The position numbers and the translations under genes were made by a program. Below are positions 30,192 to 53,645 of a DNA stretch of 59,045 bases, piece after piece. Position 1 is the first letter of the stretch, and every line of letters starts with the position of its first letter. Source of the DNA: a virus. Its lineage: Duplodnaviria > Caudoviricetes. Below the pieces are notes generated by a model that searched no databases, was not told the origin of the DNA, and saw only the letters and a program-made list of their open reading frames with translations. The DNA lies in IMG/VR virus record IMGVR_UViG_3300025151_000040, positions 1 through 59,045 of that record; one strand, written 5' to 3'.

Positions 30192-30739
30192 ACGGAATAT
30201 TAATTGTAGAAGGACCAGATGGTGCTGGTAAGACTACATTAATAAATCAACTTAGAGAACACTGGTTATTTAAAACTCGCTACATGCATCTGCGAGTTCA
30301 TAAAGAAATGGAAAAGTGGCACTGCGCTACTGCGAGAAGAGCCATTCGATTATCAAAAGATTATCTTGTTATCTTAGATAGACATTGGCCTAGTGAACAA
30401 ATCTATTCTTATGAACGATCACCTGGTCCAAGCTACGATCCTACGAATATGGTTGATTGGCTAAAGAGTCATGGTGCAATCTATATATGGGCTATACCAG
30501 AAGATTATCAAAGGTTGATTGAAGAACATAAAACTAGAAGAGAAGAAAGACATGAAGAGTACCACGATATAACGAAAGTTGTTAAAAGATATTACGATCA
30601 TTGGTACGGTACTTATGAAGGGCCAGATAATTATTTAAAGAAGATACAACCATTAAATAAAAGAAATGACTTCATACGATACGATCGGTTTACTGATAAA
30701 GATATCTTAGATAAAATAATAGATAGATTAAGACCATAG
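30188..30739 (+). CDS. P-loop dNMP kinase (thymidylate kinase-like)
   Basis: IVEGPDGAGKTT; LDR..PSE..Y. Confidence 0.85.
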   Translation: MNGILIVEGPDGAGKTTLINQLREHWLFKTRYMHLRVHKEMEKWHCATARRAIRLSKDYLVILDRHWPSEQIYSYERSPGPSYDPTNMVDWLKSHGAIYIWAIPEDYQRLIEEHKTRREERHEEYHDITKVVKRYYDHWYGTYEGPDNYLKKIQPLNKRNDFIRYDRFTDKDILDKIIDRLRP

Positions 30740-38732: not shown

Positions 38733-38908
38733 AATCAGTAAATCTTAATCGCTAAATGGCAATCCCTAATCCTAAATGGTTATTATTATTGTATATCAAT
38801 AAGAATAAAGGGATTAGTATAGAATTCAGAGGCAATCCAGGCAATCCACACGGAGGCCATTCAGAGGCCAAATGATGAATTGTATTTATATAAAAAGGCC
38901 TCTATATA
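38733..38908. repeat. iteron-like repeat cluster flanking an AT-rich core (candidate origin)
   Basis: GGCAATCC at 38758, 38831, 38840; CTAAATGG x2; ATTCAGAGGC x2; AGGCC x3. Confidence 0.55.
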
Positions 38909-38927
38909 GTATAGAAAGGAGATTTGT

Positions 38928-38990
38928 ATGGATATACTATTGTGGGCTGTAGTAATTATAGGCGCTTATATTGTGCTACACTTAAATTAA
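38928..38990 (+). CDS. 20-aa hydrophobic peptide
   Basis: AGAAAGGAG RBS; MDILLWAVVIIGAYIVLHLN. Confidence 0.6.
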   Translation: MDILLWAVVIIGAYIVLHLN

Positions 38991-38998
38991 TAAAAATG

Positions 38999-39027
38999 TT
39001 TACTACGGCGGTTTTTCGTATTAGTAT
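38999..39027 (+). promoter_or_regulatory. sigma70-like promoter
   Basis: ATG-TTTACT-N17-TAGTAT. Confidence 0.6.
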
Positions 39028-39054
39028 TAAAAAAATAGAAAGGAGAAAGCAGTT

Positions 39055-39417
39055 ATGTCTGTTTCAACTAATACCCAAAAGGGTAAATCTAAAACTCCTA
39101 AGGCTGTAAAAGCCAAAGGTGTTAAAGCTAAGAGTAAGGTTGCACCTACTCCTAGAGAAAAACAGGGCACATATAAATACGACAGAGATGCTCGTATACA
39201 GATATGTGTAGAGAAAAACCCAAAGAGAGAAGGCTCTAAGGGTTATAAGATGTTTGAGATCTACAAGAATGGTCTTACTATTCGAGAGTTCTTAGCATCT
39301 GGTGGTAGAACCATCGATATCGATTGGGATAGAGAACGAGGTTTTATCGCTACAGAAGATAGAGATAAAGAGGGTATGGCAAGTAAAACCCCTAAAGCTA
39401 CCTTTACTTTAAAGTAA
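39055..39417 (+). CDS. basic early protein, NPK..GSK family paralogue 1
   Basis: Lys-rich N-terminal tail; NPKREGSK..F..Y..G.TI.E....G..IDI.WD. Confidence 0.75.
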   Translation: MSVSTNTQKGKSKTPKAVKAKGVKAKSKVAPTPREKQGTYKYDRDARIQICVEKNPKREGSKGYKMFEIYKNGLTIREFLASGGRTIDIDWDRERGFIATEDRDKEGMASKTPKATFTLK

Positions 39418-39454
39418 TTGTATACTTTGTTTTTATTATTCTTAGTATTATTTT

Positions 39455-39505
39455 ATATTCATTTTCTTTTTCTGATAGGGGTCGTATTCCGGCCCCTGTC
39501 TATTA
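39455..39505 (+). ncRNA. candidate antisense sRNA against early-gene start regions
   Basis: TAGTAT -10 at 39443; pyrimidine seed UAUUCAUUUUCUUUUUCU; 11-bp hairpin 39474-39500. Confidence 0.5.
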
Positions 39506-39527
39506 ATCATAAACCAAGGAGGCTTAT

Positions 39528-39713
39528 ATGGCAAACACTGTAGAAGATATTATCAACGATATAGTATGCGATAAGGTTGAGGAAGAAGTCAACAACGCAG
39601 ATATTGAAACTATGGTCGAAGATAAGGTCGGCGAATACTTAGACGACAATATTGTTGAACTAATCAAAAACAACTTAGATGATATAGTTAAACTGCTGAA
39701 AGACAAGTTATGA
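39528..39713 (+). CDS. small acidic protein
   Basis: AAGGAGG RBS; D/E-rich helical sequence. Confidence 0.7.
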   Translation: MANTVEDIINDIVCDKVEEEVNNADIETMVEDKVGEYLDDNIVELIKNNLDDIVKLLKDKL

Positions 39714-39784
39714 GATTAAATCAGCAAACTACCATAATTGTACTGTTATTACTGTTAGTCTTAAAACAGTACGGTGTCTTATGA
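39710..39784 (+). CDS. 24-aa hydrophobic peptide
   Basis: ATGA overlaps at both ends; MRLNQQTTIIVLLLLLVLKQYGVL. Confidence 0.55.
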   Translation: MRLNQQTTIIVLLLLLVLKQYGVL

Positions 39785-40311
39785 ATATCTTTGCTCTTTC
39801 ACGATGTGCTCAAACGTCAGCTGAATGGCTATGCGATAAGCATGTCGTGAAGATGATATTAGAAACAGGCCAGATGTTATCGACAGCTCATCATGAGTTA
39901 AAATCTAAACATCTTGGTAGATATAAATATTATGAACCAGCATATGTAAATCACCCATGTACTGTATGGGCTAGAACTTCTCATGCTAATTACTTCTGGT
40001 TATACGAACACTTTGAAAGACTATGTCAACTGTACGAAGAGATATACCACAGAACTCATAAGACATGGGTTAAACTTCACAAAGCTTGTAGTATGAGTCC
40101 ATTCGAATTAACTGGTCCTTTTAAAACACCTGATAGTAGCTTGATTGACTTGACTGAGTTTCCTCAATGTATGCCAGATAAATACAAAGATACAGATTCA
40201 CACTTAGCATATCGAAGATATTACATAGGTGAAAAGCTACATTTCGCAGAGTACAAGAGTAGAAAGATTCCTGCGTGGATTGCTTCAAAAGATGTTTATC
40301 TTGATAATTAA
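39781..40311 (+). CDS. pyrimidine-dimer glycosylase (DenV/Pyr_excise)-related protein
   Basis: MNIF.L..A...CDKHVVKMILE..QMLSTAH..HPC..W.R.S..NY.WL..PQCMP. Confidence 0.7.
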   Translation: MNIFALSRCAQTSAEWLCDKHVVKMILETGQMLSTAHHELKSKHLGRYKYYEPAYVNHPCTVWARTSHANYFWLYEHFERLCQLYEEIYHRTHKTWVKLHKACSMSPFELTGPFKTPDSSLIDLTEFPQCMPDKYKDTDSHLAYRRYYIGEKLHFAEYKSRKIPAWIASKDVYLDN

Positions 40312-40343
40312 TTCTTTATTATAAAATTATAAGGAGAAAGAAT

Positions 40344-40553
40344 ATGGCAGATCATTGTAATATATGCGATACTCGTAGACCAGAAGGTGGTACGAAAGCG
40401 ATGGTACTTTCTAACAATATAGGAAGTCAATGGGTTGAGTTCTGTAACGATTGTGCAGATACTCAAATGCGTAATGAAGAAACAAAAGAAGTAATTACAG
40501 TTAAAGAACTGTACGACAGAATAACTTTAAGGAGGACTCAACATGATACTTAA
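40344..40553 (+). CDS. small zinc-finger-like protein
   Basis: CxxC..CxxC; AAGGAGAAAG RBS. Confidence 0.65.
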   Translation: MADHCNICDTRRPEGGTKAMVLSNNIGSQWVEFCNDCADTQMRNEETKEVITVKELYDRITLRRTQHDT

Positions 40554-40767
40554 ATGTAGAGCACAAATACCATACGACCCTACTACTATTAACGATCAAA
40601 CTAGGTTTTATTATATAACTGTAGAAATACCTTGCAAGACTTTCGAAGATGGTAAGAGAGAATTTTATGACACGTTAGAAACTATTTGTCCAGCACTCGA
40701 TGGTAGCAGGTTATGGAAAGACAGATACTACATGAAAGAATTTAAAGATGTTTCATTAGGTAGTTAA
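40543..40767 (+). CDS. hypothetical protein
   Basis: AAGGAGG RBS. Confidence 0.6.
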   Translation: MILKCRAQIPYDPTTINDQTRFYYITVEIPCKTFEDGKREFYDTLETICPALDGSRLWKDRYYMKEFKDVSLGS

Positions 40768-40779
40768 ATACTTTATAAT
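40751..40779 (+). promoter_or_regulatory. sigma70-like promoter
   Basis: ATG-TTTCAT-N17-TATAAT. Confidence 0.65.
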
Positions 40780-40800
40780 AAACAAAAGGAGAAAGAAAAA

Positions 40801-41193
40801 ATGCGTGACGAATATCAAAACTTAGAAGATCAACTTATTGACTCTGTTCGATACTTTAAATCTGGTAGCAAACTACAAGATAGGGCTTTTAAAAAGGCTT
40901 ACACTATGTTGATATATAAACAGATGGACGAAGTTAATCTTGCTATATCTAGATTACAGAGTTTAGTTAATTCATGGGAATGTTGCGATGGTATGGACGA
41001 TATAAACGAACTACCTGGCTTCTGCGATAACTACCCATTCAAACATTCATTAGATGAAATGGATACTATGTGGGGCGATATGACTGAAGAGCAGAAGAGA
41101 GAATATAACAGCTTGCAGTTTCAAGCATTAAAAGAAAGACGCAGAAAACTAGGAGACAAGAAATATATACCAGATGAAAAAGGAGACAAATAA
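40801..41193 (+). CDS. hypothetical protein, paralogue of 41194..41526
   Basis: KAY..LPGFCDNYPFKHSL..WG. Confidence 0.7.
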   Translation: MRDEYQNLEDQLIDSVRYFKSGSKLQDRAFKKAYTMLIYKQMDEVNLAISRLQSLVNSWECCDGMDDINELPGFCDNYPFKHSLDEMDTMWGDMTEEQKREYNSLQFQALKERRRKLGDKKYIPDEKGDK

Positions 41194-41526
41194 ATGGACG
41201 TAAAAAAGATTTGGCAAGAAAAAGTAGTTAATTTTACAATGACTGAAATGTTGGCTCAGAACTATGAAGAAGCGCAACATAGAGCGAAAGCATATCATTA
41301 TATGGCAATCATAAACGAATGTATTAAAGAACTACAACAAATCCAAGAGAAGTATTGGGTTAATATGTTAGCTAGTGATGTTAGCGACATGAAGCTAGAA
41401 GATATTCCAGGTTTTGGTTATAATTATCCATTCAAATGCGATCTAGCAGATATAAAACCTAAATGGGGTGAGTTCCCATGCTTCGAACATGAAGTAGAAA
41501 AAAAGGTTTCATCTGGTAAAGAATAA
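41194..41526 (+). CDS. hypothetical protein, paralogue of 40801..41193
   Basis: KAY..IPGFGYNYPFKCDL..WG. Confidence 0.7.
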   Translation: MDVKKIWQEKVVNFTMTEMLAQNYEEAQHRAKAYHYMAIINECIKELQQIQEKYWVNMLASDVSDMKLEDIPGFGYNYPFKCDLADIKPKWGEFPCFEHEVEKKVSSGKE

Positions 41527-41535
41527 TTATATAAT
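41507..41535 (+). promoter_or_regulatory. sigma70-like promoter
   Basis: G-TTTCAT-N17-TATAAT. Confidence 0.65.
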
Positions 41536-41563
41536 AAACAAACTTAAAGAAGAAAGGTTAACA

Positions 41564-41833
41564 ATGAAAGCATACGCAGTATTCGAGAATATCAACAATA
41601 CTATTTCTAATGGTGTTACCGAAAATCAATTTCATTTGCATTTGTCTATTCCTACTTTAGCTTGGCACGATAGTTCTGGTGGAATAGTAACATGGCGTAA
41701 AGAAACCAAAAGACTGTCTCACTTCGTTTTGTTCGCCACTAAAGAAGGAGCAGAAGAACACATGTTCGAAAGACAAGACGAAGCCCCTGGCGATTATATT
41801 ATCAAGGAAATAGATATAACAATTAACGATTAA
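41564..41833 (+). CDS. hypothetical protein
   Basis: AGAAAGG RBS downstream of a promoter. Confidence 0.6.
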   Translation: MKAYAVFENINNTISNGVTENQFHLHLSIPTLAWHDSSGGIVTWRKETKRLSHFVLFATKEGAEEHMFERQDEAPGDYIIKEIDITIND

Positions 41834-41878
41834 AACCTAGTATTTACTTATCTGGCCTTTTAGTTTATAGATAATTCT

Positions 41879-42340
41879 ATGGATAAAGGACCAGATAATA
41901 TTATTGATTTTACTAGTGCCGAAAGTAAGATTTTATCCGACAAGGAAAAGAAGTTTGTCGAATATATCTTTCAAGGTTTAGGTAAGAAACAAGCGGCTTT
42001 AGAAGCCGGTTACGCACAATCTGCAGCGCACGTTCAAGCTACCCGCCTACTAAAGAAGGATAAAATACGCAAGGCCCTTGATCGTTTGCGCTCTCTTCAA
42101 CATCAACAAACCATTCATACTATGGACAAGGAGATCGAATCGATTGATGCCATGATCCAAGAAGCTAGAGAAAGAGGGCAAATAGGTGCAGCGGTTCAAG
42201 CTGCCAGGCTCAAGGCACAAATGTTAGGGTACCTTGTTGATAAGAAAGAGATCAAGACAACAAACCTTGACACCATGAGCGATGACGACATAGCCCAATA
42301 CCTTGATTCCCTAAAAGCATCCTACAGCAACCCACAATAA
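41879..42340 (+). CDS. terS: terminase small subunit
   Basis: LS.K...FV......QAA..AGY...SA...A.RLL HTH; C-terminal A...A...G..V.K. Confidence 0.85.
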   Translation: MDKGPDNIIDFTSAESKILSDKEKKFVEYIFQGLGKKQAALEAGYAQSAAHVQATRLLKKDKIRKALDRLRSLQHQQTIHTMDKEIESIDAMIQEARERGQIGAAVQAARLKAQMLGYLVDKKEIKTTNLDTMSDDDIAQYLDSLKASYSNPQ

Positions 42341-42455
42341 GTGGTTGATGGTTGTTGACTGTTGACCCTAGGACCTAGAATCTATACTGTACAATCATGT
42401 ACCAGTAGTTCGTAGTACGAGGTACACGTCTGTACAACCCTGTACAACCAGTCAA
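42341..42455. repeat. GTTGA and (T)GTAC short-repeat cluster downstream of terS
   Basis: GTTGA x3; GTAC x6 in 42389-42445, including tandem CTGTACAACC x2. Confidence 0.7.
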
Positions 42456-42484
42456 AAGTTTTCCACAACTTTAAAATAAAGATG

Positions 42485-42513
42485 TTTACTTTTGTTATTT
42501 ATTTTAGTAAAAT
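42485..42513 (+). promoter_or_regulatory. sigma70-like promoter
   Basis: ATG-TTTACT-N17-TAAAAT. Confidence 0.7.
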
Positions 42514-42539
42514 AAAACCACAATAAAGGAGAAAGAAAA

Positions 42540-42893
42540 ATGAAAAAAGCAAAACTACCTAAAGTAACTACTATGATCGGCAACGACAAAGTATTATTTA
42601 AACTTGTTAACCCTAAGCAGCAAGGAAGTAAATCACATGAGATTTATGGAAAAGCACAGAAAGCTACCACAGTTAAGGAAGCATTCGAACAGGGTTATAG
42701 ATCAATAGATATCGCATACGATACTATGAATAATGGCAAATTTAAAAAGCCTAATGTTCTTATCGCAAGATATCTTAAGAAAGACCACAAGGAATTATAT
42801 TTGACATTCCTTAAGGAATTCGAAGGCGCAAAGCTAAGTAAGGAAATGCAAGACAACCTTAACGAATTCACAAAAATAATCAGTAAGTTATAA
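42540..42893 (+). CDS. basic early protein, NPK..GSK family paralogue 2
   Basis: NPKQQGSK..Y......TV.EA...G..IDI.YD; monocistronic. Confidence 0.75.
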   Translation: MKKAKLPKVTTMIGNDKVLFKLVNPKQQGSKSHEIYGKAQKATTVKEAFEQGYRSIDIAYDTMNNGKFKKPNVLIARYLKKDHKELYLTFLKEFEGAKLSKEMQDNLNEFTKIISKL

Positions 42894-42899
42894 TATAAC

Positions 42900-42925
42900 A
42901 AGGGGCCTTCGGGCCCCTTTTTTTT
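42900..42925 (+). terminator. intrinsic terminator
   Basis: AAGGGGCC-TTCG-GGCCCCTT followed by a T run. Confidence 0.92.
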
Positions 42926-42927
42926 AA

Positions 42928-43025
42928 CCTTGATCGTTGATCACCGTTGATCTGTTGACTCTTGATCACAGCTTTTGCTGTTTAAGTAGGGAGTAGGGAG
43001 TAGGAGGTATATATAATATATATAA
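42928..43025. repeat. TTGATC x4, AGTAGG x3 and TA-rich repeat cluster (candidate pac/end region)
   Basis: cttgatcgttgatcaccgttgatctgttgactcttgatcac; agtagggagtagggagtagg; tatatataatatatataa. Confidence 0.7.
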
Positions 43026-43126
43026 CAATTATTATGGCGCAAGTCGGCGCATCTCTGATCAACTATAATATATATATGTTTCAAATTGTTTTAATTTTTT
43101 ATATTCTAATTTTAGAAAGGAAAAAG

Positions 43127-43192
43127 ATGGATACTATAATTTATCTATTATTTATGGGGTTTTTGTTTTATTTATCCTCACATTTTTTTTAA
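43127..43192 (+). CDS. 21-aa hydrophobic peptide
   Basis: AGAAAGGA RBS; MDTIIYLLFMGFLFYLSSHFF. Confidence 0.55.
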   Translation: MDTIIYLLFMGFLFYLSSHFF

Positions 43193-43281
43193 AAAAAAGA
43201 TGAAAAATAATTTTACTTTTTTCGAAAAGTATGAAATAAATATACTATCTTTAATATAAAGATAGAAAGGAGAAAGAGAAA

Positions 43282-43671
43282 ATGAGTAAATCTAAAGTAG
43301 ATGAAAAAGGAAAAGGAAAACTAAATAAATTTCCTTCTTCTTTAATTAGAATTAAAGATAATTTAATTCTTCATCGTTTAGTAAACGATAAAAAAGGAAA
43401 ATCGTTTATTAGATTAGAGAATTATAAATTCTCTACTACTATTGAAAATTCCGTTAAAAACGGAATGAGTAAAGACGATTACGATTATAATACTTCTAAG
43501 CTTAAAACTATCTATTCGATAGATTTAAAAAATCTTAATAAAGATTTTAAATTAAGATACTTAGATACTATTAATCTAAATCTTTCATTTCTTAAAGATA
43601 CTAAAATTTCTAATAAGGAAGAATTAGTAAATTTAAATAAGAAAGCTTTAGAGATAGTAAATAAATTATAA
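43282..43671 (+). CDS. basic early protein, divergent NPK-family paralogue 3
   Basis: LVNDKKGKS..Y..STTIE....G....DYDY; ends IVNKL versus IISKL in paralogue 2. Confidence 0.7.
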   Translation: MSKSKVDEKGKGKLNKFPSSLIRIKDNLILHRLVNDKKGKSFIRLENYKFSTTIENSVKNGMSKDDYDYNTSKLKTIYSIDLKNLNKDFKLRYLDTINLNLSFLKDTKISNKEELVNLNKKALEIVNKL

Positions 43672-43686
43672 TCTAAGTTAATTTTT

Positions 43687-43717
43687 TTCTACGAGGAAAA
43701 TAAAATTCCTCGTAGAA
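43687..43717. terminator. 12-bp perfect inverted repeat after the early gene (no U-tract)
   Basis: TTCTACGAGGAA-7nt-TTCCTCGTAGAA. Confidence 0.5.
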
Positions 43718-43844
43718 TATTCGTATTAAGTTTAACGAAAAACTTCGTATAAGTTTCAGAAAAAACAGGTGCCTGTGCCTGTAGGAGCGAGTAGCGACTG
43801 AACAAATAGCTTTTATATGTATAAATTTCATATATAAATAATTG

Positions 43845-44495: not shown

Positions 44496-45975
44496 ACAGA
44501 TATTACTAGATAAAAAGGCTCCTCAAGAGATTCGAGAGAAAGCTTTTCTTGTAATTAAAAATCAAAAAGAAAAACAGGAAGTATCTGGAGCACAAACTTC
44601 TGTACTAAAGTTTGCTCAACATATGTATAACGGCTATAGTACTCCTGCTCATATACAATTAATTGCTAAAAGTTTAGAGGCTCTTGAACGAGATGAATTT
44701 GATCGTCTAGCTATATTCATGCCACCAAGACATGGAAAGTCTATGTTATGTTCCGAGATGTTTCCTGCCTGGTTCCTTGGTCGTAATCCTAAAAACTTTG
44801 TTATTCAATCTACTTATGCTCAAGAACTAGCTGATGACTTTGGACGCAAGGTTCGTAACCATGTGAAATCGGAAGAGTTCCTTAAAGTTTTTCCGAACAC
44901 GACACTTCGAGATGATTCTACTTCAGCGAAACGTTTTCATACAGTTCAAGGTGGAACATACTCAGCGGTCGGTGCGGGTGGTGCAATTACAGGTCGTGGT
45001 GCACACTTGTTAATTATTGATGATCCGATAAAAGGGCGAGAAGATGCTGAATCTCAAGTTCAAAGAAGAAATCTTATCGAGTGGTATAAATCGGTCGCAT
45101 TCACACGATTAATGCCTGGCGGAAAAGTAATCATCATTCAAACGAGATGGCACGAAGAAGATCTCGCAGGTTGGGTTTTAGAAAACGAACCAGGAGCATG
45201 GAAAGTTTTAGATCTCCCTGCGCTTAACGATAACGGGGATGCCCTGTGGCCAGAAGCTTATCCCGTAGAAAAATTAAAAAAGATTCAAGCGACAGTCGGA
45301 GAAAGAGTTTGGCAAAGTTTGTACCAGCAGAAACCGAGTGCGGAGCAAGGACAAATTTTAAAAAGAGATTGGTGGCGTGTATGGGAGAAAAAAAGATTAC
45401 CAGGATGTCATACGATTATTCAATCGTGGGATACTGCGTTTAGTGCGAAAGAAACTGCAGACTATTCAGCTCGAACTACATGGGGAGTGTTTACACATAT
45501 AGACGAAGAAGGAAGAGATCAAGCTTGTATAATTTTATTAGAGATGTGGCGTAATCGTGTCGAGTATCCTGAACTAAGAAAAGAAGCTCAACAATCTTTT
45601 TTCGATTGGAAGCCCGATGTCGTCTTAGTCGAGAAACGAGCATCAGGACAGAGCTTACTTCAAGATTTAAGAAGAGCAGGTGTTCCTGTAAAAGAATTTA
45701 CACCAGATCGAGATAAAGTTTCGAGAGCCCATGTCGTAGCATCAATGTTAGAAACAGGATTAGTTTGGGTTTTAAATGAAGCGTGGGTCGATGATTTAAT
45801 TCAAGAATGTGCTTCCTTTCCTTATGGAAAGCACGACGATTTAGTAGATACAACTACTCAAGCGTGGCAACTTATACGAGATAACTATTTAGTTTCTCAC
45901 CCTTTAGATCCAGAAGATGAAGAATGGGACGATAAACCTTATCGCTTAGTACAGAAAAAGTCCTTTTACAGTTAA
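44467..45975 (+). CDS. terL: terminase large subunit (start uncertain, 44449-44467)
   Basis: MPPRHGKS Walker A, LLIIDDP Walker B, QTRWH, WDTA, HDDLVD nuclease. Confidence 0.95.
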   Translation: MNLEILQKAEQILLDKKAPQEIREKAFLVIKNQKEKQEVSGAQTSVLKFAQHMYNGYSTPAHIQLIAKSLEALERDEFDRLAIFMPPRHGKSMLCSEMFPAWFLGRNPKNFVIQSTYAQELADDFGRKVRNHVKSEEFLKVFPNTTLRDDSTSAKRFHTVQGGTYSAVGAGGAITGRGAHLLIIDDPIKGREDAESQVQRRNLIEWYKSVAFTRLMPGGKVIIIQTRWHEEDLAGWVLENEPGAWKVLDLPALNDNGDALWPEAYPVEKLKKIQATVGERVWQSLYQQKPSAEQGQILKRDWWRVWEKKRLPGCHTIIQSWDTAFSAKETADYSARTTWGVFTHIDEEGRDQACIILLEMWRNRVEYPELRKEAQQSFFDWKPDVVLVEKRASGQSLLQDLRRAGVPVKEFTPDRDKVSRAHVVASMLETGLVWVLNEAWVDDLIQECASFPYGKHDDLVDTTTQAWQLIRDNYLVSHPLDPEDEEWDDKPYRLVQKKSFYS

Positions 45976-52701: not shown

Positions 52702-53610
52702 ATGGCATTAAATAGATCTTTATTTACAAAACAACTTAACTTAGGCCTCAACACTATTTTTGGTATGGAATATGACCGTTACCCAGAGCAGTGGAGAGAA
52801 TTATTTTCTGTTGAACAATCACAAAAAGCTTTTGAAGAAGATGTACAAATGATTGGTTTCGGTGCAGCTCCTACTAAAGCAGAAGGCGCAGCCATCTCTT
52901 ACGAATCAGGAAGAGAAGGTACCGTATCAAGATACACACACGAGACAATCGCATTAGCATTCTCAATTACTGAGGAAGCTGAAGAAGATGGTCTTTACGG
53001 TTCTCTTGGTGCAAAATACGCTAAAGCTTTAGCAAGATCAATGCAGCACACAAAAGAAATTAAAGGTGCGAACATCTTAAACAACGGCTTTAACACAGTA
53101 ACAGGCGGTGATGGAGTAAGCATGCTTAACTCAGCTCACCCACTTGGCGGTGGCGGAACAGCTTCTAACATTTTAGGAACTGCAGCTGACTTATCCGAAA
53201 CATCTCTAGAAACTATGTTAATTCAGATTTCTGAAATGACAGATGACAGAGGTATTCCGGTTGCAGCAACAGGTCAAAAATTGATCGTTCCACCAGAGCT
53301 AATGTTTATTGCTGAAAGAATCGTAAACAGTAATTTAAGACCAGGAACAGCTGATAACGATATTAACGCTATGAAATCTATGGGTATGATCCCAGGTGGA
53401 GTAGCAGTTAATCAACGTTTAACTGATCCAGATGCGTTCTTCTTAATGACAGATGTGCCAGATGGCTTGAAGCATTTCGTAAGACGTAACTTAAAGAAAG
53501 CTGTTGAAGGTGATTTTGAAACAGGAAACTTACGCTACAAAGTATCTGAAAGATACTCTTTCGGTTTTACCGATTGGAGAGGAATCTTCGGAACTCCAGG
53601 CGCAGCCTAA
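52702..53610 (+). CDS. major capsid protein (HK97 fold, Mu gpT-like)
   Basis: L..GLN..FG.EY..S.KAFEE..Y.H.T.AL.F.ITEEA.ED..L.VPP.L..ERYSFG..DWRG. Confidence 0.9.
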   Translation: MALNRSLFTKQLNLGLNTIFGMEYDRYPEQWRELFSVEQSQKAFEEDVQMIGFGAAPTKAEGAAISYESGREGTVSRYTHETIALAFSITEEAEEDGLYGSLGAKYAKALARSMQHTKEIKGANILNNGFNTVTGGDGVSMLNSAHPLGGGGTASNILGTAADLSETSLETMLIQISEMTDDRGIPVAATGQKLIVPPELMFIAERIVNSNLRPGTADNDINAMKSMGMIPGGVAVNQRLTDPDAFFLMTDVPDGLKHFVRRNLKKAVEGDFETGNLRYKVSERYSFGFTDWRGIFGTPGAA

Positions 53611-53620
53611 TAATTAATTA

Positions 53621-53645
53621 AAGTGAGGGTGATATGCCCTCACTT
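53621..53645 (+). terminator. hairpin after the MCP (partial terminator or stabiliser)
   Basis: AAGTGAGGGT-GATAT-GCCCTCACTT; weak U-tract. Confidence 0.55.

Follow-up and report, generated by a model that had tools for sequence, protein, structure and literature searches.

To our knowledge, the phage riboregulators described so far derive almost entirely from a small number of cultured temperate phages that infect enterobacteria and vibrios. In bacteria, CpxQ, DapZ and MicL are small RNAs (sRNAs) derived from 3' untranslated regions (UTRs), and a typical sRNA seed spans 7–12 nt. The c4 antisense RNA of phages P1 and P7 is processed and presents its pairing boxes (a'/b') in loops. This RNA, from the immI operon, shares its strand with a target that lies downstream and does not overlap it; by pairing at the ribosome-binding region or close to it, the RNA blocks a downstream phage gene (PMC8198154). 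Most other riboregulators of phage genes act in cis: P22 sar, lambda OOP and aQ, P22 sas and BTP1 STnc6030 are antisense RNAs that repress the phage's own genes, several of them at the translation start (PMC12197685). The trans-encoded RNAs VpdS of phage VP882 and PreS/LPR1 of lambda are Hfq-dependent and directed largely at host mRNAs (PMC12197685; preprint). CisR is reported to act on the cep mRNA of CTXphi (PMC13250501).

Here we describe a candidate riboregulator in a phage outside these groups. The window, meaning the whole stretch of DNA that was analysed, is a complete phage genome of 59,045 bp on one contig, with nearly all open reading frames (ORFs) on the + strand; identified genes include a family-A DNA polymerase and a portal protein. 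Named phage collections hold no DNA relative of the window, and a prophage search found no close prophage. The best named TerL proteins are 41–44% identical and include those of Pelagibacter phages HTVC027P and HTVC023P. The region 38900–43800 was found, at least in part, in 24 runs from 17 studies among those listed, mostly marine metagenomes. The phage group is abundant, uncultured and marine.

The element of interest lies behind gene 39055 and comprises a U/C-rich antisense box followed by a hairpin (Table 1). Of the known systems, c4 is functionally the closest. As there, the box lies upstream of a non-overlapping target on the same strand, and its complementarity covers the spacer and AUG of that target. 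Unlike c4, with its loop-presented boxes, the element has one linear box of 18–19 nt beside a hairpin; the target sits 3.8 kb away behind a promoter-like element of its own, with no sign of an immunity region, and the window has no Rfam match (a search that covers c4 if the family is in the library). The proposed repression of the phage's own gene by base pairing recalls sar, OOP, aQ, sas and STnc6030, but those RNAs are encoded on the opposite strand with full complementarity, whereas this element lies elsewhere on the same strand and has limited complementarity. Like VpdS and PreS it is phage-encoded and would act in trans by base pairing; unlike them, its sole candidate target is a phage gene. 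It resembles 3'UTR-derived sRNAs in having a seed just 5' of a cassette-ending hairpin, with stronger conservation in the seed than in the remaining UTR, and a start region as its trans target, and differs from them in lacking a U-tail. Among the hallmarks of Hfq-type sRNAs, the element has a conserved single-stranded seed and lacks a terminator with a 3' U-tail, and its complementarity is longer than the typical seed.

Table 1. Positions of the element, its putative target and neighbouring features in the window
Feature	Position	Strand	Basis
Gene 39055, 120 aa	39055-39417	+	ORF with RBS; stop codon at 39415-39417
TTGTAT, possible -35-like element, directly after stop codon	39418-39423	+	inferred
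TAGTAT, possible -10-like element	39443-39448	+	inferred
U/C-rich antisense box ("seed") TATTCATTTTCTTTTTCT (RNA UAUUCAUUUUCUUUUUCU)	39456-39473	+	pairing, conservation
13-nt invariant seed core AUUUUCUUUUUCU	39461-39473	+	comparison of lineages A and B
GC-rich RNA hairpin, 11 bp, loop UAUUC	39474-39500	+	fold and covariation in relatives
SD (AAGGAGG) and ATG of gene 39528	39516-39530	+	sequence; possible cis partner of tract
Pyrimidine-dimer glycosylase	39781
terS	41879
TTTACT, -35-like hexamer before 43282	43212-43217	+	invariant in 19 distinct relatives
Small inverted repeat/hairpin CUAUCUUUA-AUA-UAAAGAUAG (DNA CTATCTTTA-ATA-TAAAGATAG)	43245-43265	+	target fold
Target site AGAAAGAGAAAATGAGTA (RNA AGAAAGAGAAAAUGAGUA): RBS spacer, AUG, codons 2-3 of 43282	43271-43288	+	pairing
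Gene 43282, 129 aa, proposed regulated gene	43282-43671	+	ORF; ATG at 43282
Terminator-like hairpin closing 43282 cassette	43687-43717	+	terminator scan
PHROG "ferredoxin" moron	43842
terL	44407

An antisense box matches the start region of gene 43282

The box and the start region of gene 43282 form 18 contiguous pairs, 16 Watson–Crick and 2 G–U, with a duplex energy of -20.4 kcal/mol. The first-pass annotation of this DNA had described TAGTAT, the seed, the hairpin, the target and the 18-nt pairing, and all of these sequence features proved to be correctly placed. The tract is unpaired in folds of the element, the target site has a predicted unpaired probability of 0.98, and cofolding gains -21.2 kcal/mol. 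Complementarity ends at 39455, which by our own reading is where a transcript starting 7 nt after TAGTAT would begin.

We compared the match with shuffled sequence at two scales, and the results diverge. For this tract, the pairing is better than shuffled: against 100 start regions (-25 to +12), none of 300 mononucleotide shuffles attained 18 pairs or an energy of -20.4 kcal/mol, a larger run gave 18 pairs in 6 of 2000 composition-matched shuffles, and the runner-up start region stands at -14.1 kcal/mol. Genome-wide, it is not. Eight sites on the whole + strand pair over at least 18 nt (G–U allowed) with some start region, against 0–6 such sites in each of 12 dinucleotide-shuffled genomes, which also gave 6–18 duplexes at or below -20.4 kcal/mol. 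Because shuffled genomes yield duplexes as strong, the pairing by itself lies within genome-wide chance. Composition is part of this background. Among tracts of at least 11 nt on the coding strand, 100 are purine and 13 pyrimidine; with the coding strand this purine-rich, any pyrimidine tract finds partners. The seed is of low complexity and purine-rich start regions are abundant, which counts against specific pairing. Intergenic pyrimidine tracts of at least 11 nt on the + strand number only two, the seed and one in the terminator at 42900.

Gene 43282 alone stands out as a partner. The first-pass annotation had envisaged a shut-off RNA for several early genes, with additional pairings at 42540 and at the 40801 start. 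Both pairings exist (-14.1 and -11.4 kcal/mol, respectively), yet neither is unusual: among 400 shuffles of the tract, 14% had a second-best energy at or below -14.1 kcal/mol and 18% had at least 15 targets at or below -10 kcal/mol. Regulation of several genes is thus not borne out, and neither is the label "early", given that 43282 sits between terS and terL.

The product of gene 43282 has close homologs only, all of them "hypothetical" (49 of 81 candidates at E ≤ 0.001). It has no Pfam or PHROG match, and a PDB profile search returned noise. AlphaFold gave a pLDDT of 87.7 in one of five models and 55–62 in the other four, and Foldseek found no match to the model at E ≤ 0.001 in PDB or BFVD. 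In the Atlas, the 43282 and 39055 proteins fall in unnamed viral clusters only. The small inverted repeat listed in Table 1 lies just 5' of the target site, upstream of the 43282 Shine–Dalgarno sequence (SD); its stems are kept among relatives while the loop letters vary, and it may serve as an operator or form a hairpin at the 5' end of the mRNA.

Relatives preserve the pairing

We gathered relatives by a TerL search of IMG/VR, in which four close relatives cover the region, and by pattern scans. The element is present at 35 loci, representing 15 distinct 135-nt variants, with two seed types only. Lineage A carries UAUUCAU and lineage B UUACUUAU, each followed by the same core. Between the two lineages, over the gapless 56 nt from stop codon to hairpin, the core is changed at 0 of 13 positions and the preceding 43 nt at 15 of 43. 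The window and the lineage A locus L097 have identical spacers (0 of 56 positions different) and differ at 17 of the last 120 nt of the gene.

Box and target occur together at 15 loci, counted by contig name and length as 12 distinct contigs including the window, in five seed/target combinations. Seed A is combined with target ..GGAAAAAGAAAAUGAAUAAAAC in four contigs, with ..GAGAAAAAGAAAAUGAAUAAAAC in three and with ..GAGAAAGAGAAAAUGAGUAAAUC in one, the window; seed B is combined with ..GAGAAAAAGAAAAUGAGUAAAUC in two and with ..GAGAAAGAGAAAAUGAGUAAAUC in two. Each of the 12 contigs retains 18–19 contiguous pairs at -20.2 to -21.4 kcal/mol, the 19th being an extra pair in lineage B. Variation falls on paired positions in ways that keep the duplex. 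Pair 39458/43286 takes three forms: seven contigs have U-A, four have C-G and the window has U-G; pair 39460/43284 is C-G or U-G; and position 43276, opposite U, is A or G. The two combinations that would create a C·A mismatch (seed B with ..AAU..) do not occur among the 12 contigs. Covariation of seed and target, which had been proposed as a check, is seen in relatives as pairing kept in every contig with both partners, including one compensatory pair. With only two seed haplotypes, this pair may go back to one event that the contigs inherited by descent.

Among the relatives' own start regions, that of the 43282 homolog pairs best in six of eight loci, by a margin of 5.0–10.8 kcal/mol; in the remaining two the gene is cut by the contig end. 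Four element-bearing loci show no target and contain too little downstream DNA; for L161 this point was checked on L298, a longer locus. All 22 relatives found by BLAST retain the target core, their only variants being A/G, and conservation of the target spacer and first codons extends to sequences with an indel in the SD region (AAAGGAAAAAG versus AAAGGAGAAAAAG). In a further set of 19 distinct target segments the core is fixed by construction, these having been selected by pattern. It is the comparison with relatives, and that alone, that lifts this case above the chance background. Seed and RBS could each be conserved for separate reasons.

A candidate repressor of gene 43282

We propose, tentatively and at close to an even call, that the antisense box pairs with the 43282 start region and represses 43282 translation. 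The segment 39456-39500 would give rise to a + strand RNA element with a single-stranded U/C-rich box followed by a stable hairpin. The box would pair in trans with the SD–AUG spacer, the AUG and codons 2–3 of 43282. The resulting duplex of 18–19 bp would abut the hairpin and occlude the 30S binding site, so that translation of 43282 would be repressed; the duplex might also be cleaved. The structure, the complementarity and the conservation of both are observed; production of the RNA, contact between the two RNAs and the negative direction of the effect are inferences.

If confirmed, short antisense boxes beside cassette hairpins would control accessory ("moron"-like) genes, and box and target would make a compact, portable repressor-target pair. 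The element would be a riboregulator candidate with comparative backing from an uncultured marine phage group, to be read with the caution that equal complementarity arises by chance elsewhere in the genome.

The hairpin belongs to a family-wide module

The hairpin has two 11-nt arms, GATAGGGGTCG (39474-39484) and CGGCCCCTGTC (39490-39500), around the loop TATTC (39485-39489), with U·G at two of its 11 pairs. Its folding energy is -19.7 kcal/mol on the + strand, a z-score of -6.2 that 0 of 200 shuffles equalled, and -12.7 kcal/mol on the - strand. The orientation that had been assigned to it from its two G-U pairs thus stands, with good folding on the + strand only. Among 11 distinct relatives, in a set where the lower five pairs were free to vary and the upper six were fixed by the search pattern, 121 of 121 cells pair and three pairs are changed on both sides (A-U / G-C; C-G / U-G / U-A; A-U / G-C / G-U). 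No shuffle of 500 matched this, and slid registers were only 31–57% paired. These compensatory changes, together with wobble forms compatible with the + strand only, argue that the hairpin is a genuine + strand RNA structure. No Rfam family reached its gathering score across the window, and none scored E ≤ 1 within 38900-39800.

The hairpin is far more widespread than the box. At 88 loci with homologs of gene 39055, we compared the 130 nt that follow the gene; the set comprises 66 variants with 52–100% amino acid identity. All 66 carry a strong hairpin 27–74 nt after the stop codon, 48 of the 66 have TTGT[AG]T at most 14 nt from the stop, and 26 have an SD-led start codon 10–33 nt past the hairpin. 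Its presence in all 66 variants suggests that the hairpin module is old and general, serving as a cassette end, as a leader for the gene that follows, or as both. To this module the window's clade adds the antisense box, placed between the -10-like TA[GA]TAT and the hairpin and specific to that clade. Other clades have other additions, such as a small covarying hairpin plus UUCCUCC in the L124 and L125 types. These UUCCUCC tracts have no convincing start-region partner: the best in L125 is a 14-nt run with 3 G-U, and L124 has none of at least 11 nt. The product of gene 39055 has no Pfam or PHROG match. The gene had been called paralogous; 39055 and 43282 show no direct match and are linked transitively, 39055 to 42540 at E 7e-8 and 42540 to 43282 at E 4e-4.

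The main alternative is that the hairpin ends the 39055 cassette, by terminating, attenuating or stabilising its RNA, or else stabilises the following mRNA at its 5' end, while the tract is kept for local reasons and its match to 43282 is coincidental, a low-complexity sequence meeting a purine-rich RBS. We consider this unlikely, though a serious contender. Most of the 66 hairpin-bearing family variants lack this tract; the distant L036 clade has a proper U-tail, accounting for the 10 of 66 variants in which at least 5 of the 8 nt past the hairpin are U; hairpins likewise close the sister genes 42540 and 43282; and the eight sites that reach 18 pairs in the genome, with 0–6 in shuffled genomes, leave room for coincidence. 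The same alternative sits poorly with the rarity of the tract's match (6 of 2000 shuffles), with the finding that every seed/target change seen keeps or lengthens the pairing, and with a core unchanged at 13 positions beside a spacer changed at 15 of 43. The window's clade, moreover, has no U-tail: of the 8 nt that follow the hairpin, 4 are U in the window and 2–4 in close relatives, and in the family at large 35 of 66 variants have at most 2. A terminator scan did not list the hairpin at 39474-39500, which has the GC-rich stem of an intrinsic terminator and lacks the U-tract. Another strong hairpin without a U-tail lies at 53622-53645 (AGTGAGGG..CCCTCACTT), behind the 302-aa gene at 52702-53610, so tail-less hairpins are not unique to the element.

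The box as a possible leader of gene 39528

The tract lies upstream of gene 39528 as well, and could be an anti-SD that folds around the hairpin onto the 39528 SD/AUG and tunes 39528 in cis, its match to 43282 being a by-product of a shared RBS type. In four lineage A variants from relatives (seven loci), RNAfold pairs UUUUCUUU with AAAGGAGG and UUAUAU with AUAUGG (8 + 6 pairs, several of them G-U). The lineage B minimum-energy fold closes an insert by 12 pairs, with the tract on GAAAGGAGAAUA and a core unpaired probability of 0.20–0.32. The L125-type leader, with its UUCCUCC, folds onto its own downstream SD, and a start codon follows the hairpin at the same 10–33 nt in many clades. Set against this, the lineage A helix is short and G-U-rich (7–8 bp, 3 G-U) and is absent from the window's own minimum-energy folds, where the seed is mostly unpaired (P 0.6–0.7). 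In the L184/L233 variant the SD context is altered (AUAGGAGG) and the helix weakened while the seed is unchanged. Nor does cis folding explain the correspondence between AUGA[AG]UA of 43282 and the seed's 5' part, which is not pyrimidine. On this evidence we regard a purely cis role as rather improbable.

Cis and trans pairing could also be combined in a two-way switch, in which the box, as part of the 39055 3'UTR or 39528 leader, would mask the 39528 RBS in cis, and pairing with 43282 mRNA would silence 43282 and free 39528. We think this quite improbable. If true, two unrelated small genes would be coupled by mRNA-mRNA contact, with no Hfq-type sRNA, in a lytic marine phage.

Several observations concern the sequence between the hairpin and the next gene. 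Gene 39528 (39528-39713) encodes a very acidic protein of 61 aa, with many D and E residues, no family match and relatives of up to 97% identity. In lineage B, a non-coding, strongly folding insert of 200–300 nt (z -3.1) separates the hairpin from the 39528 homolog (L087:3663-3975; shorter in L102); we found no ORF, tRNA or Rfam family in this insert, the Rfam hits in L087 being noise. Elsewhere in the family, a conserved structured element of ~65 nt lies between the family hairpin and the RBS of the next gene (L306:5815-5885, with equivalents in L313, L314, L317, L321, L343 and L361). Variants of its outer stem are compensatory (GUAACAGAU..AUCUGUUAC, GUAAUAGGU..ACCUAUUAC) and its core CUGAUCACGCCAGUAUAAAACCC...CCUGCCAGG is invariant. 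It looks riboswitch-like, and an Rfam search with it returned only noise.

Two further readings do without a regulatory RNA. The tract might have no function as RNA and be either a relic of an inverted duplication of the 5' end of a paralog or a DNA-level inverted repeat at which recombination or inversion takes place. It does lie behind a paralog of the target's family, and its minus strand resembles an RBS spacer plus ATG. We nevertheless consider this origin very improbable: the similarity is confined to 18–19 nt (in the window, 25 of 200 shuffles score as high, and the scores in L091 and L087 rest on the core), the variants are wobble-compatible as + strand RNA only, the core is conserved next to diverged flanks, and the contigs aligned to the region show no strand-changing joint. 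We give almost no credence to a 41-aa hydrophobic peptide encoded by ORF 39418-39543 from a TTG start: the ORF is present and its product Phe/Leu-rich, as hydrophobic ORFs are the default outcome of U-rich DNA, but it has no SD, it is not conserved (an earlier stop in L091, in-frame TAA codons in lineage B), and the hairpin changes compensate structure, not coding.

Which RNA carries the box

Under the trans-acting reading, in which the box represses 43282, its carrier could be an RNA of ~50 nt with its own promoter at 39418-39448, the 39055 mRNA through its 3'UTR, or the 39528 mRNA through its leader. A discrete RNA behind a promoter-like element was the original proposal; the TAGTAT hexamer is present, as had been noted, and is conserved, but it is weak by sigma-70 consensus. 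A consensus scan did not list a TAGTAT promoter, the best reading being TTGTAT, 19 nt, TAGTAT. Lineage A, the L184/L233 variant (TAATAT) and lineage B (TAATAT) all have TA[GA]TAT at one fixed offset. TTGTAT is lost from lineage B, which reads AGGTTT. L184/L233 has an unaltered box, and the stretch separating it from TA[GA]TAT changes from UAUUUUA to UAAAAAA. The conserved TA[GA]TAT, together with the spacer unchanged within lineage A and the end of complementarity at 39455, suggests a promoter of the element's own; an RNA starting at about 39455 would begin with the antisense tract.

Both longer transcripts are live options. The first-pass annotation had itself allowed that the segment could be the 5' UTR of 39528, and the 3' UTR of 39055 is likewise a candidate: the box lies between the 39055 stop codon and the closing hairpin, and a stop followed by a hairpin is the layout of all 66 family variants. 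In modelled leaders of lineage A the seed has an unpaired probability of 0.60–0.71, and the box would be exposed in a short RNA, a 39055 3'UTR or a 39528 leader alike. Given functional pairing with 43282, we put the chance that the carrier is a discrete, independently transcribed sRNA at under half.

In the RNA run X24, available as assembled contigs only, the window is matched by one contig of 266 nt, at 42564-42829, and by three pieces of 31 nt. These contigs give no cover at 39418-39505 and are uninformative either way for that segment. The 266-nt contig, from a seawater metatranscriptome, equals the gene 42540 sequence with 0 differences; DNA carry-over is possible.

Promoter-like layouts and repeats around the cassettes

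A promoter-like layout, TTTACT-N17-TAnnAT, recurs at 30689, 38999, 42485 and 43212, preceding genes 30753, 39055, 42540 and 43282, and a similar one with TTTACA lies at 45965. TAGTAT has 22 copies on the + strand, 6 of them within the small intergenic fraction. Just after terS, TTGAT/TTGAC-type direct repeats at 42345-42365 and 42930-42969 flank the 42540 cassette ~600 nt apart, and GTAC-rich repeats occupy 42387-42452. The repeats around this cassette may be a packaging or protein-binding array, or scars of cassette insertion.
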